A stretch of 64,000 nucleotides of DNA, from the IMG/VR virus record IMGVR_UViG_3300036803_000075, positions 43,725 through 107,724 of that record, one strand, 5' to 3'. Position numbers and translations under genes: made by a program. Below the pieces are notes generated by a model. The model saw nothing but the letters and a program-made list of their open reading frames with translations. It did no database searches and was not told the DNA's origin. The DNA is from a virus (Duplodnaviria; Caudoviricetes). Of this stretch, positions 4,383-49,749 are shown piece after piece. Positions within the stretch are counted from its first letter, which is position 1; each line of letters begins with the position of its first letter.

Positions 4383-4456
4383 GGGACGGTAGCTCAGTCG
4401 GTTAGAGCGGCGCTCTGATAAGGCGCAGGCCGGAGGTTCGATTCCTCCTCGTCCCA
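4383..4456 (+). tRNA. tRNA-Ile(GAT), CCA not encoded
   Basis: Full cloverleaf: acceptor GGGACGG/TCGTCCC, D arm GCTC/GAGC, anticodon stem GCGCT/GGCGC with loop CTGATAA (GAT at 4417-4419), T arm GGAGG-TTCGATT-CCTCC, discriminator A4456. Confidence 0.92.
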
Positions 4457-4954
4457 CGGCTACTCAGGTAGCTCGTGGCGCGGTTGGGCATGGCACGGCC
4501 AGGCGAGGCACGGCCTGGTTTGGCGCGGCGGGGCATGGCTTGGGATTTACCAGGACGACCGGCAGTCTCTGGGGTTCGAGACCTCAGCGTCCACGCCCAC
4601 TTTGGTGGGTCATGGTGCGGTCGGGCGTGGCATGGCGTGGCACGGCGTGATGCGGCAAGGCTTGGGATCTACGGGGTGACTGGCAGCCATCAGGGTTCGA
4701 GGCCCTGACATCCACGCTCGCTTTGGGCGGGTCAGGGCATGGCCGGACGCGGTTCGGCACGGTGGGGTGCGGCATGGCGTGGTGCGGCATGGCTAGGCCT
4801 GGCGTGGGATCTACAGCGGCAGTGGCACACGTCCTGGTTCGAGTCCAGGAGCCGCACGCACGGCTCGGCTGGGTCAGGTGTGGCAGGGCGACGTGTGGCA
4901 TGGCTGGGAATATACAGCGGCAGATGCGTCCTGGTTCGAATCCGGGAGTCTGCA
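4457..4954 (+). ncRNA. Array A: four GGY-NN pentamer tracts separated by mini tRNA-like elements (putative guide RNA array)
   Basis: Tracts at 4477-4541 (13 pentamers), 4614-4663 (10), 4736-4805 (14) and 4862-4906 (9). Mini-tRNA elements at 4553-4593, 4674-4714, 4816-4856 and 4920-4954. The structure is seen directly; RNA function is inferred. Confidence 0.8.
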
Positions 4955-4973
4955 CGCACTACGAAGCTGAGTA

Positions 4974-4990
4974 GGTTGGCTAAGCCAACC
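4974..4990 (+). terminator. Hairpin after array A (possible terminator or 3' stabiliser)
   Basis: Perfect inverted repeat GGTTGGC-TAA-GCCAACC; no U-tract. Confidence 0.35.
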
Positions 4991-5084
4991 CCTATCAGCC
5001 TAACCACTACTTGACGCAGAGTCGAAAAGGTGATTCCATTCCTCTCGTCATAACCGCCAGAGATCAGGGAGAGGAACCCCAAAA

Positions 5085-5690
5085 GTGGCGATCAACGATA
5101 TGAAGCTAAAACTGACCGGGACGACCCCGGTGCTGTTTCACAACAGCCAGCTCGTCAACCCGTTCAACCCGATCAACCGGGAGAAGAAGAAGCTCACGGA
5201 CAAGCGCACCAAGCAGACCGACGAGGACCGCATCCAGGTCGCTCGGCTGGAATGGACAGGCGGCTGGTACTGGAACGACGAGCACGGACCCATCCTGCCG
5301 ATGATCAACGTCTACGCGGCGCTGCTGAAGGCGGCCAAGAGCACGCGCAACGGTCCTCTGGTCGACAAGGGCGTCAACTTCTTGCGCCTGACCGAGCCCC
5401 TGCAGTACGACGGCCCCCGTGACCTGGACGGCCTGTGGGGCAACGGCATCGGCGAGGGTGGCGACCACCCCTCTCCGTACGTCGATTACCAGGCCGTCGG
5501 CCAGCAGGCGGTCAAGATCATGCGCTGCCGGCCGAAGCTGAGCGAGTGGGAGCTTGACACCGTCTTCGGAGTGGACGACACGGTCATCGATCCCGAGGCG
5601 TTCCTCGGATTCATGGCCTACGCTGGCAAGTACATCGGTGTTGGGGACTTCCGTGCTATGTACGGTAAGTTCAGCGTCAAGGAGGTCTGA
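5085..5690 (+). CDS. Small RAMP/Cas7-like RNA-binding protein, putative effector of the GGY-NN arrays
   Basis: Beta1 MKLKLTGTTPVLFHN; GPILPMINVYAALLKAA in the position of the RAMP PxIPGSSxKGxxR motif; C-terminal G-rich loop GKYIGVGDFRAMYGKFSV; lies between the two arrays; RBS AGGGAGAGGA. Confidence 0.65.
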   Translation: MAINDMKLKLTGTTPVLFHNSQLVNPFNPINREKKKLTDKRTKQTDEDRIQVARLEWTGGWYWNDEHGPILPMINVYAALLKAAKSTRNGPLVDKGVNFLRLTEPLQYDGPRDLDGLWGNGIGEGGDHPSPYVDYQAVGQQAVKIMRCRPKLSEWELDTVFGVDDTVIDPEAFLGFMAYAGKYIGVGDFRAMYGKFSVKEV

Positions 5691-5691
5691 G

Positions 5692-6246
5692 TTGACTGCT
5701 ATCTTCGACTCCGAAAACCCGCAGTGGCGGCCGATCTACGACGGTCTTAAGAAGGCCGGTCTCGAATTCGATCGTCTTTTCAGCTGGGACACACTGAAAG
5801 CCATCGCAGGATACGACATCCGGCTGAATCGCAGTGCCTTCTACGCGGCAGTAAAGCAGCTGGAAGAGCACGACAAGCGTACGTTGGTCAGTGTGTGGGG
5901 CAAGGGATATCGCGTGGCTCCAGCGCCCGAGCATCATAAGCTCGGGCTCAAGCACCAGCTCAAGGCCAAGCGTGCCGTACGGCGCGGCGCGCGCAAGGTC
6001 AAGGCGGCTGACACGTCTCATCTCACTGCCGAGCAGATCCACGCCAACGAGCAGCTGATCTTCCGACTCCATCGTCACGAAACTCAGCTGATCAACCACG
6101 AGACCCGGATCAGCGCACTGGAGAGGGAGACTGGGAAAACTCGCCGTGAGCTGGACGAGTTGAACAAGCAGTCTGAGCTGGCACGCCGGCTCAAGGCGCT
6201 GGGTATCAATGTCCCCAAGAGTGCCCCTGACACCGTCGAGGGGTAA
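5692..6246 (+). CDS. Array-associated accessory protein (winged-helix-like N-terminus, basic helix, coiled-coil C-terminus)
   Basis: TTG start at 5692 behind an AAGGAGG RBS inside the upstream gene's end. RTLVSVWGKGYRVA resembles a wHTH wing. Heptad-rich LINHETRISALERETGKTRRELDELNK. Confidence 0.65.
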   Translation: MTAIFDSENPQWRPIYDGLKKAGLEFDRLFSWDTLKAIAGYDIRLNRSAFYAAVKQLEEHDKRTLVSVWGKGYRVAPAPEHHKLGLKHQLKAKRAVRRGARKVKAADTSHLTAEQIHANEQLIFRLHRHETQLINHETRISALERETGKTRRELDELNKQSELARRLKALGINVPKSAPDTVEG

Positions 6247-7746
6247 CAGGGCCTGGCCTGGCCGGGTGAGGCGGGACGAGGCTAGGTGAGGCGAGGTTCG
6301 GCAACGTCGGGCCGGGTAGGGCGAGACTGGGCGCGGCGAGGTCAGGCTGGGTTGGACAAGGAAGCACAAAATGGGTGACTGGCAGTCTCCGAGGTTCGAG
6401 GCCTCGGCACCCACGCTCCTTTCGGGAGTCAAGACGGGGCAGGGCGCGGTGAGGTGTGGCCTGGTGGGGTGAGGCTTGGCGTGGTGAGGCTTGGGATTTT
6501 AAAATGGACGACCGGCAGCCACTAGGGTTCAAGGCCCTAGCGTTCACGCTCACTACGGTGAGTTGAGGCCCGGTTTGGTACGGCAAGGCGTGACAGGGCA
6601 TGGCTCGGCCCGGCGAGGTCCGGCGCGGCAGGGCGCGGCATGATTGGGCGCCGTATGCCATGGCAAGGTGAGGCATGGCAAGGAATTACAGAGCGAGCGG
6701 CACACTTCCGGGTTCGAGTCCTGGACGCTCGCGGCCGTCCTCGGGCGGCTCGTGGCAAGCCTAGGTTGGGTTTGGCATGGCAATGTTAGGTAGGGCTCGG
6801 CTTGGTCCGGTGCGGCAAAGCGCGGTTAGGTTTGGCATGGCAACAAACTGGGTGAGCGGCACACTCTTCGGTCCGAGTCCGAAGCACCCACGGCTACTCC
6901 GGTAGCTCGTGGCTTGGTGCGGCGCGGCAGCGCATGGTTGGGCCTGGCATGGCAGGGAATTTACTGAGCGGATGGTCGTACGGGAGGTTCGACTCCTCTT
7001 GCGTTCACGCCCTCTTTGGGGGTCAGGGCACGGCTAGGCTGGGCGCGGTAGGGCTGGGTACGATTCGGTCTGGCGGGGCAAGGCTTGGGATATACCAGTG
7101 CGAATGGCATACCTCTCGGTTCGAGTCTGAGACGCTCACGCTCTCTTCGAGAGTCAGGGCAGGGCGACGCCAGGCATGGTTAAGTTGGGTGCGGCTGGAC
7201 GCGGTGCGGCAAGGTTTGACTTGACGTGGCAAGGCGAGGCAGAGCTGGGTCAGGCAGGGCAGCAACAACACTGTGTCGACGGTCTTCGAGAGGGTTCGAC
7301 TCCCTCTGACACGCGCTCTCTTCGAGAGTCAGGGCGGGGCTAGGCAGGGCAACGTATGGCCCGGCGCGGTAAGGCTTGGCTAGGTTGGGTTGGGTCCGGT
7401 GGAGTGTGGCTAGGTATGGAGTGCCGACGGTCTGCGAGGAGGTTCGACTCCTTCTGGCACACGCTCTCTTCGGAGAGGCGGGGCTAGGTGCGGCGTGGCT
7501 TGGTGGGGCACGGTGCGGTCAGGCCGGGCATGACAAGGATCAAAAATCTGGACGAGCAGCACACTTCTGGGTGCGAGTCCCAGACGCCCACGCTCACTCC
7601 AGTGAGTACGTGGCCAGGCGTGGCATGGTAGGGCACGGTCCGGCTGGGTCGGGCGCGGTAGGGCTAGGCACTGGGCATGGTTTGGTACGCCTAGGTGAGA
7701 TGTGGCATGGCTTGGTATGGCAGGGATCTGTTAAAATCCCTGCCAT
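6247..7746 (+). ncRNA. Array B: ten GGY-NN pentamer tracts separated by nine mini tRNA-like elements
   Basis: Tracts: 6250-6359 (22), 6433-6492 (12), 6567-6681 (23), 6754-6843 (18), 6911-6955 (9), 7027-7086 (12), 7158-7262 (21), 7333-7417 (17), 7477-7536 (12), 7612-7723 (22). Mini-tRNAs: 6373-6413, 6506-6546, 6691-6731, 6850-6890, 6966-7007, 7098-7138, 7273-7313, 7421-7461, 7550-7590. Ends in an 11-bp hairpin at 7717-7746. Confidence 0.8.
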
Positions 7747-8283: not shown

Positions 8284-8636
8284 TCTCCGTTCTCCCGCTC
8301 CTTGCGCTGTTCCAGCTCCTGGTCGCTCTCGTCCTCGGCCGTCATCAGGTCGTCGCCGTCGTCCACACCCAGTCGGCGGAGGATCTCGTCGAGCTTGAGA
8401 TTGAGAGCGAGATTGTCCCGGTTCTGGGTGTTCTGAATGATGAACACCATCAAAAAAGTGATGATCGTCGTGCTGGTGTTGATCACCAACTGCCAGGTGT
8501 CTGAGAAGCCCAACAGCGGCCCGCTGGCGCCCCATACGAGCAGAGCGCCCAGCGCGGCCACAAACACCCAGCCCCGGCCGAGAATGGCCGAGATCTTGCT
8601 GGTGAACCTGGTGAAGACCCCACCCTTTTTACTCAT
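8280..8636 (-). CDS. Low-affinity iron permease family (Fet4-like domain) membrane protein
   Basis: Characteristic WGASGPLLGFSDTWQLVINTSTTIITFLMVFIIQNTQNRD..ALNLKLDEI; ATG at 8636 overlaps the upstream TGA. Confidence 0.8.
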   Translation of the reverse strand: MSKKGGVFTRFTSKISAILGRGWVFVAALGALLVWGASGPLLGFSDTWQLVINTSTTIITFLMVFIIQNTQNRDNLALNLKLDEILRRLGVDDGDDLMTAEDESDQELEQRKERENGD

Positions 8637-10711
8637 GCTGTCGGAGTCACCCAAGTAGTTCCATTCCACACCTTAACGGGCGCCTGTACCCATGAGGTTC
8701 CATTCCAAATCTTTACTGGCGCATGCACCCAAGTAGTTCCATTCCACACCTTCATCGCGCCGCCGGAGGGGGCCGTGTACGTCTTCGTCAGCGTGATGTG
8801 GCTGGCACCCGAGGAGTCATAGCCGGTGCCCGTGACGGTGATCTGCTGGCCATTATCGACAACATCGAACCAGCCATATTGCTGGCTGTAGACCGAGCTG
8901 CTCTGGGGCACCGGGTAGATCCCAGCGGAGTACGTACCGTTGCCGGCATAGGTTGTCTGGTCCAGCGGTGAGGCACAGAAGATCTGCAGACCGCTCGGGG
9001 AGTGGGTCCCGTCATCCGCCGCCAGCACATGCAGGTCACCATGGATCATCATCACCCGGACACCGTTGGCGTTGATGAAGTTGCCGATCTCCGTACGCTC
9101 GGTGTTGTAAGCCGACCAGGTGTCGTCGCCGACGTACGTGGTGCCGTTGTTCCACGCGTCCTCATGGAACCAGATCTTGACCGGCTCGGGCTGCAGCAGC
9201 TGAGCCTTCAGCCAGTCCTTCTGGGTGCTCCCGAGCTTGGTCTTGCTGGAGTTGTCCGTCTGGGCGATCGGACTCATGTACGACCGGCCGTCGGTGCAGA
9301 TATAGCGCACCCGGCCGGCCACGAAGGTGAAGTACGTTCCCGCGTTGTCCGCCGCCGGCAGCGTATAGCTCGGCACCCGGTTCCGGTAGACGGACTGGGC
9401 AGCCGCGTGGGCGACCGCAGTACCGTCGTTGTTCGAGCCGCCGCCGGAGTCGTGGTCAGACCAGATGTAACTGATGCTGGTGCTGGAGAAGAGCGACTGC
9501 TGCCGCTGGCAGCTCATCACCTCGTCCCACGCCCGGTTGAACAACGTCGTGTCATTGGCCACGATGTCTCGGTAGTTCAGGTCTCCCAGGTGCTGGAAGA
9601 ACAACGCCGTCCGAGATCCCGCCCCCACCGAGCCGGTGCGTGTGCGGATCTGGTCGAAGTTGATGTCATTACTGAAGGTCTTGGCACATGAGGCAGCAGC
9701 GAAGGAATAGCTAGCGGGGCTGCCTGCTACCGGGAACGTCCGCACCGTACCGACAGACTGGGTGTCGATCGTTCCGTCCAGCTCCAGACCGTAGTAGTAC
9801 GTGGTGTTCGCAGTCAGCCCTGAAATAGCGAACTTAGCCAATCCATTGGCGTCAGGCGTGGCCGCGCTGGAAAAGACTGGGCTCGTCAGCAGATCGCTAG
9901 TGGTAGAGACCTTCACCCTCGCGGACGCCGTGTTAACCGTTCGAGAGGAGACATTGAATCCAGTAGCGGTCGCTCCACCGGCCCAACGGGAAAGGCAGGT
10001 CTGGTACATCGCTGGGTATCCGACATCGGAAAATCCCGCATTCGCTGCGTAATAAGCGATAGCGGCAGTGGCGTTAACCGTCCCTACCACGCCGCAGTAC
10101 ATAGCCGTGCCGGTGTTGAATGTAGCCGTGCTGGTGATGGTCTGGGCAGGTGAGCCAAAGGCTGCAGTCGGGAAGGATCGAACCTCCAGCTGCCCGACCG
10201 TGGCAGAGAAAGTCACCTTCCATTCAATGCGACCCCAGGTATTCGCCGTCAAGGCACCCGTGGTGGTCGTGGCGGCAGACGCTCCTGTCGAATCCCGAGC
10301 TGAGATCAGACCACTAGAAAGCACTCGCAGAGTAGCCATGATAGCGCCCGAAGTATTCAAGATCGCCATGACGGCTTGGGAGCTGCCTGGAAGCGAGGGA
10401 AAGTTAACGTCGATCCAGCCATAAATGGTGGTCGCGCTCGTCTGGAACATCCCCGCTGGACTAGCGGCGCCAGTGTTCCACCGGGTATACGCCTGGGCGT
10501 CGGTGGCATTCGCTACTACGTGAAGGGTATTGACTCCGGTCGACCGTACGACCGTATTGCTGTAGGCCAATGCTGCCGTACCACCGATCGTGGGCAAGAA
10601 GTCAAAGGCCCATCCAGGCCCACCACCAGAGTTGCCGGCAGTGGTAGGCATGTTAGGCACCACCAGCGCCGCACCATTGGGGCCATTCAGGCTATTGAAA
10701 ACTCGCGTCAT
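8633..10711 (-). CDS. PhoD-like metallophosphoesterase fused to virion-type domains
   Basis: Motifs AASCA, HLGDLNY, WSDHD, TDGRSY, LGSTQKDWL and IHGDLH; FN3-like segment GLTANTTYYY; C-terminal triple KxWNGxxW repeat. Confidence 0.75.
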   Translation of the reverse strand: MTRVFNSLNGPNGAALVVPNMPTTAGNSGGGPGWAFDFLPTIGGTAALAYSNTVVRSTGVNTLHVVANATDAQAYTRWNTGAASPAGMFQTSATTIYGWIDVNFPSLPGSSQAVMAILNTSGAIMATLRVLSSGLISARDSTGASAATTTTGALTANTWGRIEWKVTFSATVGQLEVRSFPTAAFGSPAQTITSTATFNTGTAMYCGVVGTVNATAAIAYYAANAGFSDVGYPAMYQTCLSRWAGGATATGFNVSSRTVNTASARVKVSTTSDLLTSPVFSSAATPDANGLAKFAISGLTANTTYYYGLELDGTIDTQSVGTVRTFPVAGSPASYSFAAASCAKTFSNDINFDQIRTRTGSVGAGSRTALFFQHLGDLNYRDIVANDTTLFNRAWDEVMSCQRQQSLFSSTSISYIWSDHDSGGGSNNDGTAVAHAAAQSVYRNRVPSYTLPAADNAGTYFTFVAGRVRYICTDGRSYMSPIAQTDNSSKTKLGSTQKDWLKAQLLQPEPVKIWFHEDAWNNGTTYVGDDTWSAYNTERTEIGNFINANGVRVMMIHGDLHVLAADDGTHSPSGLQIFCASPLDQTTYAGNGTYSAGIYPVPQSSSVYSQQYGWFDVVDNGQQITVTGTGYDSSGASHITLTKTYTAPSGGAMKVWNGTTWVHAPVKIWNGTSWVQAPVKVWNGTTWVTPTA

Positions 10712-35179: not shown

Positions 35180-36924
35180 CAGGGAGTCTTCCTCCAGAAG
35201 TCCAGTCCATCGGTAGCGCCAATGCCACCGATCAACGGGGCCACGGGGCCGACCCACATCACTGGGGTCGCCAGGACGGGCCGGGCCGGGTAGGAGGAGC
35301 TGCCGGTGTCGTAGTAGATCACGGGCTCACTTGCGATGGAGGCCCACCGCAGACCCGTGCCCTGGGCGGAGTCCGCGATCAGGAACTGGCCGTCCGTACC
35401 GACCGGCACCCGGGCGGGAGTCGAGGTGCCAGAGGCACCAATCAGGTCGCCCTTGGTGGTGGTGAGCGTCTTTGGGACGTACTTGGTAGCGGCATCTGAC
35501 GCTGCCGCCGTAGTGGCGTTGGACTGAGCGGTGTTCGCCTTGGTGGTGGCGTCTGTCGCCGCCGCCGCGATGGCCGCCGCCTGGGCCGCTGTGGCTGCTC
35601 CTGACGCGTCATAAGGCAGCGTCGGGATCTGGACGGTGGGTACCTTCGAGCCACTGTCGAGCGTGGCAAGACCACTGGCGGCGCCCTTCTGGGTAAGGGG
35701 CAGATACTTCGTCGCGGCGTCCGCGATAGCCGCTGCCTGGGCGGCTGCCGCCGAGCCGGTGCCGTCGTACGGGAGGCTCGGAATCTGGGCGGTGGGGACC
35801 TTGGTGCTGCCATCCAGCGACGCGATGCCGGAGGCCGCACCCTTCTGGGTGGTCGGGATGTACTTGGTGGCCGCATCGGCGATAGCAGCCGCCTGGGCGG
35901 TCGTGGCCTTGGTCTGGGCACCCGTAGGTGTCTCAGCCCCTATGGAGGCCGGAGAGACCGGATCAGCGCCGGCAGAGGCATGCTGAGCGGCGTGGGTCTT
36001 GGCCGCGTAGACCCCAGAGAGCACCACCACGCCGGTCTGGCCGTCTACCGACAGCACCGAGCCCGATCCGGAGCCGGCGATCTCTAGCCAGTTGCCCAAG
36101 GTCGAGGCCGGGTCACTCTGCAGGATGTAGCTCTTGGACTGGTCGGTCCGGATGGCGATGTCCCCGCGCTGGGCGGTGAGCGCCAGCATGGCCGCCTGGC
36201 TGGACACCACAAAGGTGTCCTTGATCGCCAGCGGGGGCAGCTGGGAGTTGGGGATCAGCCCGTTGGAGTCCAGGGTGGCGACCCCGCTGGGCGCACCCTT
36301 CTGAGTCACCGGAATCGAGGCGGCCTTGGCCGCGTTGGCCTTGTTGGTCGCATCCGTAGCCGACGCGGCGATAGCTGCTGCCTGGGCGGCGTTGGCCGCC
36401 GTCACAGCTGCTCCGACAGCGTCGTAAAGGCTACTCAGACTAGGGATGTTGCTGGCCTGGAGAGTCGCCACCAGCCTGGGCTTGCCGGCGGTGGCATCCC
36501 ACACCATGACGGTGCCGTCATTACGCGGCGCGTTGGGCATGTGGATGACATCGGTGGAGTAGCCGGAGTCGTACAGGGCCTGCAGGATCGGCCCGAACTC
36601 GGCTTCCAGCGGATAGGTCACGGTGGCGCCGAACGGCTTGCCGTACAGCCGTTTGATGCCCACCGCGCCGTAGAACTCAGGGATCAGGCCGTCCGTACCG
36701 ACCAGCACCGTGGAGTCGACCAGGATGGTGCCGTCAGCCAGGTGCAGATCCGGAGCCAGCGTGGTAGCCGCCTGGTCCGAGTAGATCACAATCGGCACCT
36801 GAGGGGGCATCAGGATCGGGTCACCCGCGCGGCTGTAGTAGAACGTCAGCCGATCTTGCGGGAACAGAAACCTCCCCACGGGATCCCAGCCCGGTGGTGC
36901 GTCCTGCATGATCGGTACGGGCAT
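35179..36924 (-). CDS. Fibre protein with Ala-rich repeats
   Basis: Repeated TQKGAASG[IL]A[ST]LD..KVP..QIP and AAQAAAIADAATKY; TTKGDLI..RVPVGTDGQ. Confidence 0.75.
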   Translation of the reverse strand: MPVPIMQDAPPGWDPVGRFLFPQDRLTFYYSRAGDPILMPPQVPIVIYSDQAATTLAPDLHLADGTILVDSTVLVGTDGLIPEFYGAVGIKRLYGKPFGATVTYPLEAEFGPILQALYDSGYSTDVIHMPNAPRNDGTVMVWDATAGKPRLVATLQASNIPSLSSLYDAVGAAVTAANAAQAAAIAASATDATNKANAAKAASIPVTQKGAPSGVATLDSNGLIPNSQLPPLAIKDTFVVSSQAAMLALTAQRGDIAIRTDQSKSYILQSDPASTLGNWLEIAGSGSGSVLSVDGQTGVVVLSGVYAAKTHAAQHASAGADPVSPASIGAETPTGAQTKATTAQAAAIADAATKYIPTTQKGAASGIASLDGSTKVPTAQIPSLPYDGTGSAAAAQAAAIADAATKYLPLTQKGAASGLATLDSGSKVPTVQIPTLPYDASGAATAAQAAAIAAAATDATTKANTAQSNATTAAASDAATKYVPKTLTTTKGDLIGASGTSTPARVPVGTDGQFLIADSAQGTGLRWASIASEPVIYYDTGSSSYPARPVLATPVMWVGPVAPLIGGIGATDGLDFWRKTP

Positions 36925-36935
36925 GAGCGGACCTC

Positions 36936-36972
36936 CTCTACCTCTTCGTCGTTCTCTGAGAGGCGCGGGCAG
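36936..36972 (-). promoter_or_regulatory. Putative late promoter copy (CTGCCC-N19-GAAGAGGTAGAG)
   Basis: Bipartite motif; intergenic. Confidence 0.62.
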
Positions 36973-37035
36973 GAGGCCGGAGCTGGGACGACAGAACGAC
37001 GAAGCCTCGGATTAGGTCACTTGGAGCGGTTCGCC

Positions 37036-37245
37036 CTACGGAGTAGGCGGTACGTAATGAGGCTGCCAAGCCTCAATGATCAAGTAAGGCGCATGGGTGT
37101 CTTCGGGAGCGCCACTGGTGTTGTTCTGGATAGCGGACCAAGCCGCTTCTTCGAAGGTATCGAACACGGAGCCACTGGCGAACATGTTGTTGCGCGAAGT
37201 GACGATCCAAACTTTCTTCATCTCGAACTTCGGCTGCTCTTCCAT
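37036..37245 (-). CDS. Small hypothetical protein
   Basis: ATG at 37245 overlaps the upstream TAA. Confidence 0.45.
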   Translation of the reverse strand: MEEQPKFEMKKVWIVTSRNNMFASGSVFDTFEEAAWSAIQNNTSGAPEDTHAPYLIIEAWQPHYVPPTP

Positions 37246-37922
37246 TAGTTCATACCTACCCAGTAATTGAGCGGACCTGTGGTGACGCTCGCCATGGTGA
37301 TCGAAGTGGGAAGAGAAGTCTGGCCGGTCAGAATGCTGCCACATCTAAAGTTGGCCGACGCGGCGGTGCCGCCCACGTTGTAAACCGGGCTAGAGCCAAA
37401 GGTGCCACCACTACGCGAAAAGGTGGGAACCGTCGTAGCCCCTCCTACGACAATGCCGATGTAATAACGACCTGGTGTGATGGCATATGTGGAAGAGAGT
37501 GGAAGTGTACTAAGGCCAATGCTTTGCCAGGGGGTCGAGACATTGTTGGTCACGGCCAGTCTAGTGCCAGCTGTGCTGTAGATACCGGCGAAAGAGTTAG
37601 TCAAGCCAGCGGGGGTGGTCTGGCTGTTCAGCGCCGTATACAAATTGGTGACTGTAGCAGCGACCGGCACGACTATCGCCATAAGGTAGACGACGCCAGC
37701 AGTAATGGCGTTCGTGGTGTTGTTGAAGACAATTAGAGGGTCATGTGTCCAAGCTATGAGCCCTTGATCTCCTGGTTGGAATTGACCTGCCTGGCCGGAG
37801 GCTACAACAAGTTCGGTGCCATCCTGGTCCTTGGTGTAAATCCGACGGTCCGTCTTGGCGTAGAGGTCCACGTAGCCAGCAGACGGAGTGCTGGGGGTAG
37901 ACATCTGAGGCAGGACCGGCAT
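37245..37922 (-). CDS. Virion protein (start MPVLPQ at 37922)
   Basis: GAGGAGG RBS; STPSAGYVDLYAK motif; beta-rich. Confidence 0.6.
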   Translation of the reverse strand: MPVLPQMSTPSTPSAGYVDLYAKTDRRIYTKDQDGTELVVASGQAGQFQPGDQGLIAWTHDPLIVFNNTTNAITAGVVYLMAIVVPVAATVTNLYTALNSQTTPAGLTNSFAGIYSTAGTRLAVTNNVSTPWQSIGLSTLPLSSTYAITPGRYYIGIVVGGATTVPTFSRSGGTFGSSPVYNVGGTAASANFRCGSILTGQTSLPTSITMASVTTGPLNYWVGMN

Positions 37923-38086
37923 TACCCCTCCTCGGCGCTCTTGAGCTGAGACAGCTCGGCGGTCAGCTTGGCGATGGTCTGCTCGTACTGGATCACCTGG
38001 GCCATAAGCAGGACGCGATCGTCCATCAGGCGCGCCAGCTCCTGCTTCTGGGCCATGACGATGGCCGCCTGTTCCAGGTCGATCAT
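37922..38086 (-). CDS. Small coiled-coil protein, 54 aa (not in the ORF track)
   Basis: MIDLEQAAIVMAQKQELARL...LSQLKSAEEG*; coupled at both ends. Confidence 0.5.
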   Translation of the reverse strand: MIDLEQAAIVMAQKQELARLMDDRVLLMAQVIQYEQTIAKLTAELSQLKSAEEG

Positions 38087-39576
38087 CCCACCACACAGAC
38101 CCTGATGGCGTTGGTAGTCGGAGCCGTGGCAAAGCTCAAGGTGACGTTGTTGGCGTCGGTAGCAACGGGGTTAGCCAGGATCTGTTCATTGGAGGTGTTG
38201 TCGTAGACGAACACTCCCGGCGCCGTGTTGTTCAGCGCATGGTTGACCGTGATGGTGGTCAAGCTGCCATTGCCGAAGTTGGTCGGTCCGTACACACCCG
38301 CCGCGACCAGGGCTGTGCGTGCGCCTGCGGCTGTCGTAGCGCCCGTACCGCCCTTATTCAGGGCAACGGTGGTGGCGGACCAGGTGCCGGTAGCGATCGT
38401 GCCCAGGGTTGTGATGGAAGTCTGGCCGACGTACGCGGCGTCGATATCGATCCCCGAGCCCGAGACCGCGATCCTGCTGGCCGTACCCACGGCCGACATG
38501 ACCGAGCCGACCTTCTGAAGACCGTTGCCAGCCGTCACGGTGGCCGAGGAGCTGAACTGCGAGAAAACCAATGCGGTACCTGAGGAACCACCGATGGTGA
38601 TGCTGTTGTTGGTGCTCAATACCCAACCGGTGTCGGCGTTGACGGTACCCTCTTCGATGAACATAAAGGCGCCGCCGGTCACCTCGGAGTCAGCGTCAAA
38701 GTCCGTCGCCCGATCCCACACACCATTGGCGCCTGTACCCAACGTGGTGACTACATAGATGCCATTCTGGGCGCCCGCAGTCTGGTCCTTGAGCAGGATC
38801 CTGTTGCCCTGGACCAAGGTGACGCTGTCGAGGGAGTTGGGGGCGGCAGTAATCTGACCTCGAGCTGACGTACCGCCGGTCGCGGTATAGGTCACCGAAA
38901 CGTTGGCCGTGCTCGCCAGCCGTACCGAGGCCTTCACGTCCAGGCCGGCGGCCAGGTTGTCGACGTAGTTCTTAGTGGCCAGGTGGGTCGACTGAGTCGG
39001 GTCAGACGCGGTGATCGGACTGGTCGCGGCGGCGAACTGATCGAGCCTGTAGGCCTGCACGACCGAAGACAGGTCCGAGATCGTCGAGGCCGTCTGCGTG
39101 CTGGTGTGATTCGCCCGGCTCAGGTAATAGCTCGCCGCCTGGCTGTTCAGGTTCGTGGCATTAGAGGCCGTACCTGTCAGCGATGCGGTAATCACGCCCG
39201 CAGCGAAGTTGCCGCTGCCGTCTCGCTTCACAATGGTACTGGCGGTATTGGTATCGATAGCAGCGTGCAACGTGGTGTAGTCGGCCGCGCTCATCGTTCC
39301 GGGCACCGAGCCGCTGGAGGCCGCGATAGAGATGGCCTGAGACTTGCTGGTGACACTGCCGACTGAGATGGCTCCCACCCCGGACACTGACTCCAGAATG
39401 GTGGTCAGAGAGTCCGCTGCGGTGCCATTCCACGTCTTGGCTGTGCCGCTCGTGGTGTTGAACCATGTGAGCCCTTTGTCGGTGCTCCCCAGCCCTCCTG
39501 GATCTGATGCCAGGTTCTGTAACTTTGCGTTCTGCAGCTCGGTCTTGCGAAAGTCGATGGGGTTACTGAGCCACAT
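38083..39576 (-). CDS. Fibre/decoration-type virion protein
   Basis: ATKNYVD..GLDVKASVR..RILLKDQT..QNGIYVV..WDRATD motif, common in phage fibres. Confidence 0.7.
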   Translation of the reverse strand: MWLSNPIDFRKTELQNAKLQNLASDPGGLGSTDKGLTWFNTTSGTAKTWNGTAADSLTTILESVSGVGAISVGSVTSKSQAISIAASSGSVPGTMSAADYTTLHAAIDTNTASTIVKRDGSGNFAAGVITASLTGTASNATNLNSQAASYYLSRANHTSTQTASTISDLSSVVQAYRLDQFAAATSPITASDPTQSTHLATKNYVDNLAAGLDVKASVRLASTANVSVTYTATGGTSARGQITAAPNSLDSVTLVQGNRILLKDQTAGAQNGIYVVTTLGTGANGVWDRATDFDADSEVTGGAFMFIEEGTVNADTGWVLSTNNSITIGGSSGTALVFSQFSSSATVTAGNGLQKVGSVMSAVGTASRIAVSGSGIDIDAAYVGQTSITTLGTIATGTWSATTVALNKGGTGATTAAGARTALVAAGVYGPTNFGNGSLTTITVNHALNNTAPGVFVYDNTSNEQILANPVATDANNVTLSFATAPTTNAIRVCVVG

Positions 39577-39585
39577 GTGCACTCC

Positions 39586-40110
39586 TCATGACAGGTACGC
39601 CTTGCCTGAGAATGCAAGACCGAATTGAAGGGTAAGAGTGTTGTCGTCGACATAGTCAATCGTGGGAGCGAACACCTGCGTGCCAGCGGTATCTAGCACC
39701 GTGACTCCGCCGGGCATGAACCCCAGGTTATGGATGATGGTCCAGGTAGCCGCGTCGGTGTTTTGGGCAAACACAAAATACCCGGGCCGACCGACCGCGC
39801 CCTCTAGGACATCCAGTCGTTGGGCGGCCTCCGCGTAGACCGCATAGCCGCCGGCCGCTCCGGGAGACTTAACGTACAGAGTGGAGGTCCCGTCGGCTGG
39901 CCCCAAGAACTCCGGAAGCAGGCCGTCGGAGTCGATATGAATGATGGAGCCGGCGAGCGCGACGTTGTTCAAACCGGTGATATTCGCCAGCTGCGTGCAG
40001 TTGGCGTCCAGGTAGACAGTCAAGGCCACCGGGCCTGGCATCAACAGAGGCTGACCTGGCCCGGCATACACGTACGCCGAGCGATCGTCTGGAAACTTTA
40101 GCCTAGCCAT
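39586..40110 (-). CDS. Virion protein sharing an N-terminal module with 35179-36924
   Basis: FPxDR..GL[LI]PEF.G shared module; WTIIHNLGFMP C-terminal module. Confidence 0.6.
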   Translation of the reverse strand: MARLKFPDDRSAYVYAGPGQPLLMPGPVALTVYLDANCTQLANITGLNNVALAGSIIHIDSDGLLPEFLGPADGTSTLYVKSPGAAGGYAVYAEAAQRLDVLEGAVGRPGYFVFAQNTDAATWTIIHNLGFMPGGVTVLDTAGTQVFAPTIDYVDDNTLTLQFGLAFSGKAYLS

Positions 40111-40985
40111 TAGTAAAAACGTCCGTAGTAACGAGGTCGAGCAGCCATGTAGCCGACACGGGTCGGGCCGTACCGACCGAAGACGCCACCAGAAACCAGC
40201 ACACGTGGCCGGCCAAGACCCATATGGCGGATCTTGAAGACCTCGAATTCCTTCAGCAGCAGCGCTTCCTCGGACTGCAGCATCTGCCGCCAGCGGTCCA
40301 TGTAGTCACGTCGGTCCAACCGGGTGATCGTCCCACCCGTGATCACGTTCGGCTGTTCGGTATACGAGCGCACCAGATGCTTGAGGGCCTCAACATAGAG
40401 GCACATCTCCAGCAGCGCGCCCCATTGGGCGAAAGGAAACTCCGATCCGCCAACGCCATCAACGGTATAGCTCTGGAAGGGCTGGGCGGAGGTGTTCATC
40501 CGACCCACCGCGATCTTGAGCAGCTGCGCAAGCCGCCCACGGTCATAGTGGCTCTGGAAATAGGTTTGGAGGTTCGGGCCACCATGCGGTGAATCGAAGC
40601 AGTCGGCGAACCGAATCCAGACCGAGTCGACTACGTCCTTCATCTCCGGCGGCAGATTGTCGTACGGAGGAGTGACATCGCCGATGACGTAATACTGCTC
40701 GTATCGATCGGCCTGGGCGGCGATCGCGTACTGCCAGACGAGGGTGAAATTCCCGGTGTCCTGCAGATCCGCACCAGCGAGGGTGACTTGGTAGTCGCCC
40801 GTGTCGATCCGGACCGCCATCCGCTGGAATACCTGAACCGGTGGAATGGCCTCATTAAAAAATCCCACGTCCACCTGACTGGAGTCAGGATCCGTGAGCA
40901 CTCCGGCGGAATAAATCTTCAGGCCGATGATCTCCCGGCCGTACCGAGAGAGGTAGGCCCTGTTACGGAAGTCGATCTCGACCAT
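40110..40985 (-). CDS. Head-to-tail adaptor-like protein
   Basis: Synteny; helical C-terminal half. Confidence 0.5.
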   Translation of the reverse strand: MVEIDFRNRAYLSRYGREIIGLKIYSAGVLTDPDSSQVDVGFFNEAIPPVQVFQRMAVRIDTGDYQVTLAGADLQDTGNFTLVWQYAIAAQADRYEQYYVIGDVTPPYDNLPPEMKDVVDSVWIRFADCFDSPHGGPNLQTYFQSHYDRGRLAQLLKIAVGRMNTSAQPFQSYTVDGVGGSEFPFAQWGALLEMCLYVEALKHLVRSYTEQPNVITGGTITRLDRRDYMDRWRQMLQSEEALLLKEFEVFKIRHMGLGRPRVLVSGGVFGRYGPTRVGYMAARPRYYGRFY

Positions 40986-47978: not shown

Positions 47979-48335
47979 ATGGCCAACGAGCACTTCCCGC
48001 TGCGGTCGAAGATCATCCTGACAGTCGGGGGACTGCTGTTCCTGGGGCTCATCAGCATCACTGCGTGGGCTGGCTACCAGTACCAGGGACAGACCCGGTC
48101 CAATACCGACTTCGTCAACCAGGTCCACGCCCAGCATCTCGGCAACGGGATTTCCGATCCCGAGCTGATCCAGGCCGGCATGTGGGTCTGTGTTGAGGCG
48201 GACCAGCCGACCACCACGGCGGCATTGGTCGCCGGCCTGGGAAAGCGGTCCAACTTCCCAGCCGCCACGGCGAAGGCGGTGATCAAGCCAGCTCTGCAGA
48301 ACTACTGTCCCGTCAATGAATCACACGTGAAATGA
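47979..48335 (+). CDS. Membrane-anchored DUF732-like protein
   Basis: TM helix, then DFV..LIQAGMWVC..ALQNYCP pattern. Confidence 0.55.
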   Translation: MANEHFPLRSKIILTVGGLLFLGLISITAWAGYQYQGQTRSNTDFVNQVHAQHLGNGISDPELIQAGMWVCVEADQPTTTAALVAGLGKRSNFPAATAKAVIKPALQNYCPVNESHVK

Positions 48336-48355
48336 TCACAACGAAAGGTAGCTAC

Positions 48356-49432
48356 ATGAAGCGGAAGCTTCTCAGCCTGCTGGGCGCGGTCGCACTCACC
48401 GCAGGACTGATCACGATTGGAGCGACGCCGGCTCAGGCGCTGCCCACGTGGCAGGTAAACCAGGCCATCATCAGTTCACCGGACGATGGCAGCACCCCGT
48501 GGGCGAGGGACTCCTTCACCCGCAAGACGACCATCAAGCAGACCGGCACCGGCACCTACCGGTTGGACGTGACCGACACCGGCACCTTCAAGACCGGAAC
48601 TGCTGGACCGCACCTCGGCGGTTCCAACGGCGGTGACATAGTCAACCCCGACGTGGTGGGCACCTTCAGCGGTAATCTTCACTTCAACGTGACGGGCACC
48701 CTGCTGAACAGTGCCGCGTTGGCCGCGCTGCAGACCTCGTACGACTACACGGGGGTGGCGGACAAGAACAGCGTTCCGGCCGATCTTCCGACCACGGGAA
48801 CTTGGTACAAACACTTCTTCTCAGCCACGACTACCGCTGACTTCTTTGGCTGGACGTGGACCTATCAGACTCCGTGCGAAAAGATGATCCAGTCTGAGGC
48901 TGATGGCGTCGATGGCAATGTCGTCGGATACAACTGCGTCACTCCGGGCATCCCGACGTATACCAACGCCACCTGCTCCAACCCGTACGCGATCTTGCAC
49001 ATCCCAGCTACCGTGGGTGTCACGTACAACTACGCAGACGGTCGCGGTGTGGTCGCCGGCTCGGACGTGGTCATCAATGCCACGGCCGCCACTGGCTACA
49101 AGATCACTACTGGGGCCACCGCGAGCTGGGAGTATGCCACCCAGCAGGCCCCGCAGCCGTCTGACTGCCACCCGCCGGTCAACCGCTACCCGGGCAACCC
49201 CCGGCCGACCGGTACCAAGGCATACTACGTTTCCACCGCCGGCCAGACCTGGCAGACAGTCCTGAACAACCTGCACTACAGCGGCACCAACATCGCCGCC
49301 TTGCAGCAGTGGAACAAGACCCACTCCGCCTCATACGCCGGCAAGACCTCCAGTCCGGTGTACTCCAGCTGGTGGAACCTCAACAAAGCCTCGGTCATCG
49401 CGGTCCCAACCAGCTCTCCGGGCGTTCTGTAG
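48356..49432 (+). CDS. Secreted protein with possible LysM-like C-terminus
   Basis: Signal peptide MKRKLL...PAQA; C-terminal YYVSTAGQTW..IAALQQWN. Confidence 0.65.
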   Translation: MKRKLLSLLGAVALTAGLITIGATPAQALPTWQVNQAIISSPDDGSTPWARDSFTRKTTIKQTGTGTYRLDVTDTGTFKTGTAGPHLGGSNGGDIVNPDVVGTFSGNLHFNVTGTLLNSAALAALQTSYDYTGVADKNSVPADLPTTGTWYKHFFSATTTADFFGWTWTYQTPCEKMIQSEADGVDGNVVGYNCVTPGIPTYTNATCSNPYAILHIPATVGVTYNYADGRGVVAGSDVVINATAATGYKITTGATASWEYATQQAPQPSDCHPPVNRYPGNPRPTGTKAYYVSTAGQTWQTVLNNLHYSGTNIAALQQWNKTHSASYAGKTSSPVYSSWWNLNKASVIAVPTSSPGVL

Positions 49433-49448
49433 CTCGGAACACGAAACT

Positions 49449-49513
49449 CGCACGGCGTGGTTGGGCCAGGTGTGGCGCGGCTGGGTGCGGCGGGGCACGG
49501 CACGGCTAGGTAA
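49449..49513 (+). ncRNA. Orphan GGY-NN tract (12 pentamers)
   Basis: CGCAC then GGCGT GGTTG GGCCA GGTGT GGCGC GGCTG GGTGC GGCGG GGCAC GGCAC GGCTA GGTAA; intergenic; same strand and grammar as arrays A and B. Confidence 0.7.
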
Positions 49514-49520
49514 AACACGC

Positions 49521-49553
49521 AACAGCCCCGGAGAGCGAATCTCCGGGGCTGTT
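49521..49553. terminator. Bidirectional terminator-like hairpin
   Basis: AACAGCCCCGGAGA-GCGAA-TCTCCGGGGCTGTT between convergent genes. Confidence 0.7.
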
Positions 49554-49749
49554 GGCTATCTGGAGCTACTTGCCGTCTCGCTTGGTGTTCTGGACGCCTG
49601 TGTTCGGCCTGGGCCTGCCTCCGGTGCCCTGACGCTGCGGCAGTACCGGCGGATCGTGCTTGGGCTGATAGTTAGCCGGCCGCTTGGGATTGACCTGACC
49701 TGACGAGTCAGAGTGCTTGGCCACGGGGAAGAATCCTCCTAGGAAACGG

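Follow-up and report, generated by a model that had tools for sequence, protein, structure and literature searches.

A VIPR system with predicted tRNA-like guide separators in a large, high-GC phage

We analysed a locus at positions 4383-7746 of a 64,000-nt stretch of viral DNA (hereafter the window, meaning the whole stretch), in which a two-gene operon is flanked by tracts of GGY-NN pentamers. This locus is almost certainly a VIPR system. VIPR (Viral Interference Programmable Repeat) is a CRISPR-related, RNA-guided DNA silencer published in 2026, whose parts, according to the preprint text, are the RAMP protein Vipr, an accessory gene, vap, and vrRNAs of alternating GGY and NN (10.64898/2026.04.26.720920). 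The first-pass annotation of the stretch had mentioned a system of this name, and correctly so; since VIPR is already published, the kind of system is not new. The unusual part is a tRNA-like element that stands as tail and putative separator behind the guides. We place the probability of the whole reading, a VIPR system with tRNA-like guide separators, at about 0.85.

As far as the preprint text goes, VIPR has been studied mainly in the Escherichia phage SUSP1 and in a Pseudomonas fulva prophage (10.64898/2026.04.26.720920). With the present locus, its range now includes a large, high-GC phage whose guide set, of 15 guides with up to 23 repeats, is among the biggest seen. It also reveals a whole clade, found in Mycobacterium and Gordonia phages, a Kineosporiaceae metagenome-assembled genome (MAG) and IMG/VR contigs, in which a tRNA mimic takes the place of the published pseudoknot tail.

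Guide tracts and the vipr-vap operon

A register-aware scan of both strands of the window detected 14 pentamer tracts at the locus, the number first reported, all on the + strand and in strict register, spanning 4477-7723 with 9-23 units each. Zero GGY-NN tracts were found on the - strand of the window. The scan also retrieved a 15th tract on the + strand, at 49454-49513, which the first-pass annotation had missed and which consists of 12 perfect GGYNN units. The tracts and the two genes are arranged as follows.

4477..4906, + strand: upstream vrRNA array, guides v1-v4
4477-4541 (13 units), 4614-4663 (10), 4736-4805 (14), 4862-4906 (9), + strand: guides v1-v4, in that order (register-aware scan)
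5085..5690, + strand: vipr, encoding a 201-aa minimal RAMP protein (PDB 36pp_D, phrog_4652, AF2/Foldseek)
5692..6246, + strand: vap1-like accessory gene, 184 aa, with an N-terminal winged helix and then a long coiled coil
6250..7723, + strand: downstream vrRNA array, guides v5-v14, beginning 3 nt past the vap stop codon
6250-6354 (21 units), 6438-6492 (11), 6567-6681 (23), 6764-6843 (16), 6911-6955 (9), + strand: guides v5-v9 (register-aware scan)
7027-7086 (12 units), 7158-7262 (21), 7333-7417 (17), 7477-7531 (11), 7612-7723 (12 + 10), + strand: guides v10-v14 (register-aware scan)
49454..49513, + strand: orphan vrRNA-like tract, 12 perfect GGYNN units, 45 kb from vipr

Over 221 units, G occupies position 1 in 95% and position 2 in 94%, position 3 is C or T in 221 of 221, and positions 4 and 5 are near-random, with entropies of 1.93 and 1.99 bits, respectively. 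Units that do not start with GG begin with GA (11), CG (6), AG (4), GC (2) or TG (1). These counts bear out the unit structure first described, namely a predominant GG with GA, CG, AG and GC variants, an invariant pyrimidine and two free positions. Runs of at least five units number 16, against 0-1 per shuffle in 20 shuffles of the 107.7-kb genome. Identical neighbouring pentamers occur four times, compared to 6.3 +/- 2.4 expected; as they are not in excess, the tracts are not slippage copies, an origin that had been considered for the NN positions. The last guide, v14, is made of 12 and 10 units separated by a 2-nt phase slip at 7672-7673. Scans of the locus for sigma-70 promoters and intrinsic terminators gave no signal above chance.

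A GG-purine directly follows 10 of the 14 tracts (as GGGAT or GGAAT in eight) and comes after one degenerate unit in two more, while none is present behind the tracts ending at 6843 and 7262. The tract ending first described, a GG-purine plus a short A/T-rich linker, thus stands in its first half for most tracts, but the linker leads into a conserved tRNA-like element that had gone undescribed. Of the 30 units that make up the final pairs of the tracts, 26 have A or T as their first N, compared to 55% overall, a mild constraint. The commonest endings are GGCAT followed by GGCWN, and Felixounavirus tracts mostly close on GGTAT; the 3'-most repeats may be partly constant instead of free guide positions. 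At the other end, a small covarying tetraloop hairpin precedes most tracts (e.g. 4458-4476, 4597-4609 and 6891-6907), lying between the 'ACGC' behind each tail and the next tract, with UUUG, UUCG, UCAG, UACG and other loops. It was found in this phage and in none of the related loci, and it may be a protective 5' structure.

The operon (5085-5690 and 5692-6246, + strand) lies between the upstream and the downstream tracts, and its first product had been called RAMP/Cas7-like. Both homology and predicted fold agree with that description. The 201-aa product aligns with PDB entry 36pp_D, 'SUSP1 Vipr protein', over residues 6-199 to 4-188 (phmmer against the PDB, E 2.1e-17), and it matches phrog_4652 (E 5e-42); the same open reading frame (ORF) has zero Pfam matches. 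Identity to the characterised SUSP1 and P. fulva relatives is about 28%. The AlphaFold model (AF2, 19 homologues) has a predicted local distance difference test score (pLDDT) of 92.6, and its best PDB matches by Foldseek are type VII Cas7, Csm3, Cmr4 and Cas6, with type VII Cas7 and Csm3 at the top, as the fold comparison proposed in the first-pass annotation had anticipated. The C-terminal G-loop, GVGDFR...GKF, and the RCRP strand are kept in the Felixounavirus, Pseudomonas and actinophage homologues, and the thumb arginines are conserved. The closest relatives, at 65-69% identity, are encoded on short Logan contigs, and the search for related loci retrieved no close relatives among genome contigs.

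The vap1-like product has 372 relatives in a representative library and is homologous to the product of the gene directly 3' of vipr in LittleE, prophiBWHA-1, MakoManhole and Trine. Its similarity to the product of the gene after vipr in Felixounavirus Z31 is weaker (BLASTP E 1e-4, in a small database), and the link to Z31 is firmer when made through the actinophage homologues. The AF2 model (pLDDT 94.3) consists of a winged helix and a coiled coil, and weak but consistent matches were obtained to winged-helix DNA-binding domains.

No adaptation machinery accompanies these genes. Cas1 (PF01867), the only cas gene searched for record-wide, was not found in the whole record, nor was a CRISPR-like tandem array, in line with the first report of neither cas1 nor a repeat-spacer array; the neighbouring ORFs have nothing Cas-like among their Pfam and PHROGs matches. 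Class 1 CRISPR-Cas systems are defined by genes for adaptation, a set of several Cas subunits and a repeat-spacer array; the locus is not one of them, the record having neither Cas1 nor an array. Vipr shares with the Cas7 backbones of class 1 systems (Csm3 and Cmr4 of type III, and type VII Cas7) the RAMP fold, the G-loop, the thumb and, as predicted from its relatives, polymerisation with a fixed period on the guide RNA. The system differs from them in having one small RAMP protein, no cas1, cas2, cas5, cas6 or cas10 and no repeat-spacer array, a 5-nt period with two informative bases, and guides that are hard-wired in the genome rather than acquired.

The locus presents every defining feature of VIPR that can be tested from sequence, and we therefore assign it to VIPR, of the type II kind by its pair of vipr and vap1-like genes; the preprint text sorts the known systems into seven types (10.64898/2026.04.26.720920). 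Its Vipr is a minimal RAMP protein homologous to the characterised one, tandem-repeat genes of at least four YNNGG/GGYNN units adjoin vipr, and the minimal vipr and vap locus is phage-borne, with no Cas1 in the record and no array. The vap1-type gene, with its winged-helix model, lies directly after vipr, as in type II. The locus falls outside the SUSP1 clade in its 3' tail, which is an acceptor/T-arm element and not a pseudoknot.

Compared with the type II systems of SUSP1 and the P. fulva prophage (10.64898/2026.04.26.720920; 10.64898/2026.04.26.720927), the locus has a homologous Vipr (28%) and a vap1-like gene directly downstream of it, as they do, and it shares with them vrRNA genes on both sides of the operon, the terminal GG-purine and a phage location; no self-target was found in its 107.7-kb record, and none is reported for other VIPRs. 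It differs in the number of guides (14 + 1 here, four there), in tract length (up to 23 units here, against 9-16 in the text of 10.64898/2026.04.26.720920) and in its tRNA-like acceptor/T-arm tails where SUSP1 has a pseudoknot, with a real tRNA heading the array. Unlike those systems, it resides in a high-GC phage whose relatives infect actinobacteria. In all eight other loci examined, the vipr homologue has adjoining GGY-NN tracts, a co-occurrence that the first-pass annotation had proposed to look for.

The orphan tract begins 21 nt past the stop codon of ORF 48332-49432, in the 3' region of that ORF, and precedes a 15-bp terminator hairpin at 49520-49554, which looks bidirectional. Neither a tRNA-like tail nor a self-target was found for it. 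In lying far from vipr it resembles the solo vrRNAs of SUSP1-family phages and F5 satellites, as the preprint text describes them (10.64898/2026.10.15.759431), with the difference that its phage has a vipr of its own and that it is without the tail of its clade, whereas the published solo vrRNAs retain the SUSP1-type tail.

tRNA-like tails and processing of the array

Behind 13 of the 14 locus tracts, the GG-purine (with the exceptions given above) leads, through a short linker that contains a conserved TAC, to a tRNA-like element of 38-42 nt. We built a covariance model (R1) from 26 of these tails in six loci, 13 from the window and 13 from LittleE, Trine, prophiBWHA-1, MakoManhole and one IMG/VR phage. 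The tails of the window, the tRNA gene at the head of the array and the hairpin at its end are located as follows.

4383..4457, + strand: tRNA-Ile(GAT) (ARAGORN; Rfam tRNA, 71 bits)
4553-4593, 4674-4714, 4816-4856, 4917-4954, + strand: tails T1-T4 (covariance model R1, 38-60 bits)
6373-6413, 6506-6546, 6691-6731, 6850-6890, 6966-7007, + strand: tails T5-T9 (R1 and pair counts)
7098-7138, 7273-7313, 7421-7461, 7550-7590, + strand: tails T10-T13 (R1 and pair counts)
7719..7744, + strand: closing hairpin of v14, plain, 9 bp (RNAfold), in place of a tRNA-like tail and with no match to R1

The element consists of an outer, acceptor-like stem of 5-6 bp that starts with G in 23 of 26 copies, a joining loop of 11 nt, in which a GG is kept in 22-25 of 26, and a T-arm with a 6-bp stem and a 7-nt loop. 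The T-arm signature, G-T-T-C-R-A..C with its closing C, is invariant in the 26 copies. The 3' strand of the outer stem directly follows the T-arm, so that the two helices can stack into 11-12 bp, and the element ends with a discriminator-like purine and an invariant C, with no encoded CCA. Standard pairs fill 97.6% of the pair cells in the 26 copies, compared to 62.6% after shuffling; compensatory double changes occur in 10 of 11 pairs, and a shift of the pair partners by one column lowers pairing to 50-58%. The pair counts were taken on the model-fitted alignment, which favours the structure, and a MAFFT alignment gives the same pairs. Judged from sequence, the element thus has the features of a tRNA-like minihelix: an acceptor-like stem on a T-arm, a canonical T-loop, a discriminator and a CCA-less end.

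The tails are not themselves tRNA genes: ARAGORN and the Rfam tRNA model call only the tRNA-Ile, and the tails have no cloverleaf, D arm or anticodon arm. One weak, sub-threshold match resembling tRNA-Sec was seen with Rfam. The tails match no known Rfam family and no ribozyme. The tails of the Felixounavirus loci (SUSP1 clade) differ in both sequence and fold, those of the Pseudomonas locus are different as well, and R1 finds none in either group.

The tRNA-Ile lies 19 nt ahead of guide v1, in the slot that tails hold elsewhere in the array. Its T-arm and the 3' strand of its acceptor stem align in register with tail T8, and the 24 nt behind it, up to the first repeat, are identical at 23 positions to those behind T8. 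This register alignment and downstream identity indicate that the real tRNA and the tail are interchangeable modules of the array. Three guides are without a tRNA-like element, namely v14, the orphan guide and LittleE's final guide, and each of them ends in a plain hairpin or terminator. A tail is also present behind the final guide of upstream arrays, both here (T4) and in LittleE.

Two parts of a tRNA on which RNase P and RNase Z depend, the acceptor/T-arm stack and the elbow loop, are both kept in the tail. An encoded CCA blocks RNase Z, and the tails have none. On this basis, host tRNA-processing enzymes could release individual guides from the long array transcript. RNase Z would cleave behind the discriminator, RNase P would perhaps cleave as well, on the 5' side of the stem, and a plain hairpin or terminator would instead form the end of an array's last guide. 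We give even odds to the tails being substrates of host RNase Z, and possibly of RNase P; the locus would then be a natural example of a tRNA-punctuated array, with 14 guides. That the last guides (v14, orphan and LittleE) are without the element is consistent with its being required only ahead of further sequence.

A tRNA or tRNA-like fold beside a small regulatory RNA has precedents. Natural examples are the tRNA-like/pre-miRNA transcripts of murine gammaherpesvirus 68 (cut by RNase Z), MALAT1-mascRNA and mitochondrial tRNA punctuation; polycistronic tRNA-gRNA arrays, which use tRNA separators for multiplexed CRISPR guides, are an engineered one. In all these cases, the fold recruits RNase P or RNase Z to release the small RNA and is a full cloverleaf or a near-full tRNA mimic, whereas here an 11-nt loop replaces the D and anticodon arms and cleavage is predicted. 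Among VIPR systems, the arrays of types I and V, interspersed with hammerhead ribozymes or staggered according to the legends of figs S18-S19 of 10.64898/2026.04.26.720920, likewise have structured RNA between guides, presumably setting their ends. Unlike the hammerhead-interspersed arrays, the separator here is not self-cleaving, since Rfam finds no ribozyme, and it mimics the substrate of a tRNA enzyme. The text of the VIPR preprints, including 10.64898/2026.10.15.759431, does not contain the word 'tRNA', and 'RNase' occurs once across that text, in 10.64898/2026.10.15.759431.

Some observations weigh against processing by tRNA enzymes. No separator stands between the vap stop codon and guide v5, which starts 3 nt further on, so a tRNA-like cut is not strictly required for 5' ends. 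The stacked helix of this phage, at 11 bp, is one pair shorter than that of a tRNA; Trine, MakoManhole and LittleE have 12 bp. Tails also stand behind the last guide of upstream arrays, where, however, the vipr mRNA may come next. Finally, a tail that is a mere stable 3' cap, comparable to the SUSP1 pseudoknot, could explain most of the same facts.

According to this last explanation, which we consider possible but not probable, the tRNA-like element is a structural 3' cap and not a processing signal: it would stay attached, end the filament, nucleate assembly and guard against 3' exonucleases, while the guides would be separated by other nucleases or arise from separate promoters. The preprint text describes a structured 3' tail in SUSP1, a pseudoknot, that caps the filament and from whose end R-loop formation starts, and the element occupies the exact position of that tail. 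Tails with no following guide (T4 and LittleE) also suit a cap, and T-loops are general RNA building blocks. A cap does not account for the plain hairpins that replace the element behind v14, the orphan tract and LittleE's last guide, nor for the real tRNA that takes its place at the head of the array, and the acceptor-like stem, discriminator-like purine and missing CCA exceed what a cap needs. The two functions can also be combined: a single RNase Z cut would part one unit from the next, and the element would stay on as a cap.

If host tRNA enzymes do mature the guides, long VIPR arrays would be processed without a Cas6-like enzyme. This would be a third route for cutting VIPR arrays, beside ribozymes and staggering, and it appears common to the Actinomycetota-associated clade. 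The array would then share the design of engineered multiplexed guide arrays and be ready-made for multiplexed guide expression in mycobacteria.

Target recognition

In the characterised VIPR systems, the NN positions read double-stranded DNA (dsDNA) with one base skipped per repeat, and the complex silences transcription of rival phages or satellites, as set out in the preprint text. Biochemistry and cryo-electron microscopy described there showed one Vipr subunit per GGY displaying the NN (10.64898/2026.04.26.720920; 10.64898/2026.04.26.720927). The SUSP1 homologue binds dsDNA and represses from either strand, and other VIPRs showed no self-targeting, again going by the text (10.64898/2026.04.26.720920). 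The guide model of the first-pass annotation had one subunit bind each GGY and display the NN, which these papers support, and has to be corrected in that dsDNA is read with one skipped base per repeat.

By analogy with these relatives, the present system likely works by DNA-binding silencing of foreign elements. Vipr protomers would polymerise on each vrRNA, one per repeat, hold the GGY and present the NN, as in SUSP1 and P. fulva. The filament would bind dsDNA in the pattern NN-x-NN-x, one base being skipped per repeat, and block transcription, as the same two systems suggest. Rival phages, prophages and satellites would be the likely targets.

We searched for such targets with gapped patterns with a 1-nt skip, mostly exact and covering parts or all of six guides. 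No self-targets were found in the 107.7 kb with a 0-, 1- or 2-nt skip, the guides matching no better than controls with shuffled NN order. In IMG/VR, the exact 1-nt-skip patterns gave no match for v1 (two sub-windows), v7, v12, v13 or the orphan guide. Full-length v6 had no exact match in 185,579 species genomes or in JGI metagenomes, v12 had none in JGI metagenomes, and v1, with up to three mismatches, had none in 401 genomes of one actinobacterial order, that of a Gordonia MAG. Cross-targeting was found neither with a related 93-kb VIPR phage, in either direction, nor against the 10-kb loci of other VIPR phages, and v7 read as a peptide retrieved nothing by tblastn.

A 9-unit pattern of v6 had 10 matches in IMG/VR, three of which lie in the 'QEVLGELV' motif of the large terminase genes of low-GC phages, a motif that marks the end of the large-terminase ATPase domain. 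Other units of v6 match there at chance level only, so these genes are not the v6 targets, and a full-length match to v6 was not found. The NN code of v6 (6438-6492), with the skipped base as wobble, reads [S/R]A[D/E]VLG[D/E][F/L]V[D/E][F/L], which is terminase-like and which we note as a lead only.

Silencing of foreign DNA has against it that a natural target was not found, whether in exact scans of IMG/VR with parts or all of six guides, of JGI metagenomes with two and of species genomes with one, or with v1 in the 401 genomes. As a result, the 1-nt skip rule and the choice of target are borrowed from relatives with 28% identity. Since the scans were mostly exact and covered some of the guides only, these negatives are weak evidence of absence.

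Alternatively, the complex might target RNA, that is, transcripts of rivals or of the host, as the type III and type VII backbones do. The best structural matches of Vipr are indeed the RNA-targeting Cas7 proteins of those types, and our scans found no DNA target. We consider this very improbable all the same: for the closest characterised homologue, the preprint text describes binding to dsDNA and repression from either strand, the partner here is a winged-helix protein of the DNA-binding type, and the locus encodes no nuclease partner. That the tracts are non-functional simple repeats or code for a Gly/Ala/Arg-rich peptide, with a RAMP-like neighbour by coincidence, is effectively refuted by the unit counts, for although open frames cross some tracts and the Trine gp40 record translates one, a 5-nt period cannot keep a reading frame, the pyrimidine at position 3 is invariant beside near-random NN, identical neighbours are not in excess, and all tracts lie on a single strand, with the same layout beside every homologue examined.

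Distribution, phage and neighbouring genes

Loci with a vipr homologue and adjoining tracts include those of LittleE, Trine, prophiBWHA-1, MakoManhole and one IMG/VR phage, and those of a Gordonia MAG and a Kineosporiaceae MAG. The two MAG loci were retrieved by scanning 185,579 species genomes for the combined pattern of tract and T-loop, which added two vipr loci with R1-positive tails, one in each MAG. Because these are R1-positive too, the tRNA-like tail marks one clade, whose identified members are Actinomycetota and their phages. The LittleE repeats go unmentioned in the Cluster J phage paper.

In Trine (MH271318.1), the first ~100 residues of gene 40 (267 aa) translate vrRNA tracts and tRNA-like tails (positions 5588-5900 of the locus). 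This segment lies between vipr and the true start of vap, and ARAGORN reports a 'tRNA-???' at 5786-5854 of the locus. The N-terminus of gene 40 is likely a mis-annotation in the public record.

The window corresponds to positions 43725-107724 of the IMG/VR virus record IMGVR_UViG_3300036803_000075 (Duplodnaviria; Caudoviricetes), which is 107,724 bp long, has a GC content of 61.7% and is 73% complete according to CheckV. Its structural genes include those for a tail sheath, a baseplate wedge and a major head protein (PHROGs), and the sheath is only ~30% identical to those of myoviruses of Mycobacterium (Myrna and Phabba), Gordonia and Rhodococcus. From these genes, we identify the source as an uncultured myovirus distantly related to the myoviruses of those three genera. 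An actinobacterium is the probable host. The phage's own large terminase was not located in the record with PHROGs, and its gene probably falls outside the 73% of the genome that the record covers.

Directly past the array, ORF 7868-8095 matches the RF-1/GGQ domain (PF00472 below the cut-off; phrog_3122, E 3e-23) and resembles peptidyl-tRNA hydrolases of the ArfB type. Four more tRNA genes (Thr, Leu, Met and Trp) are encoded at positions 36390-40887 of the record, 7-12 kb upstream of the VIPR locus, and the - strand of the same region contains several further GGTTCGA T-loop motifs. A 39-nt tandem repeat of 2.7 copies (8648-8752) is located at the 3' end of ORF 8633-10711, which lies on the - strand and is hydrolase/phosphodiesterase-like.

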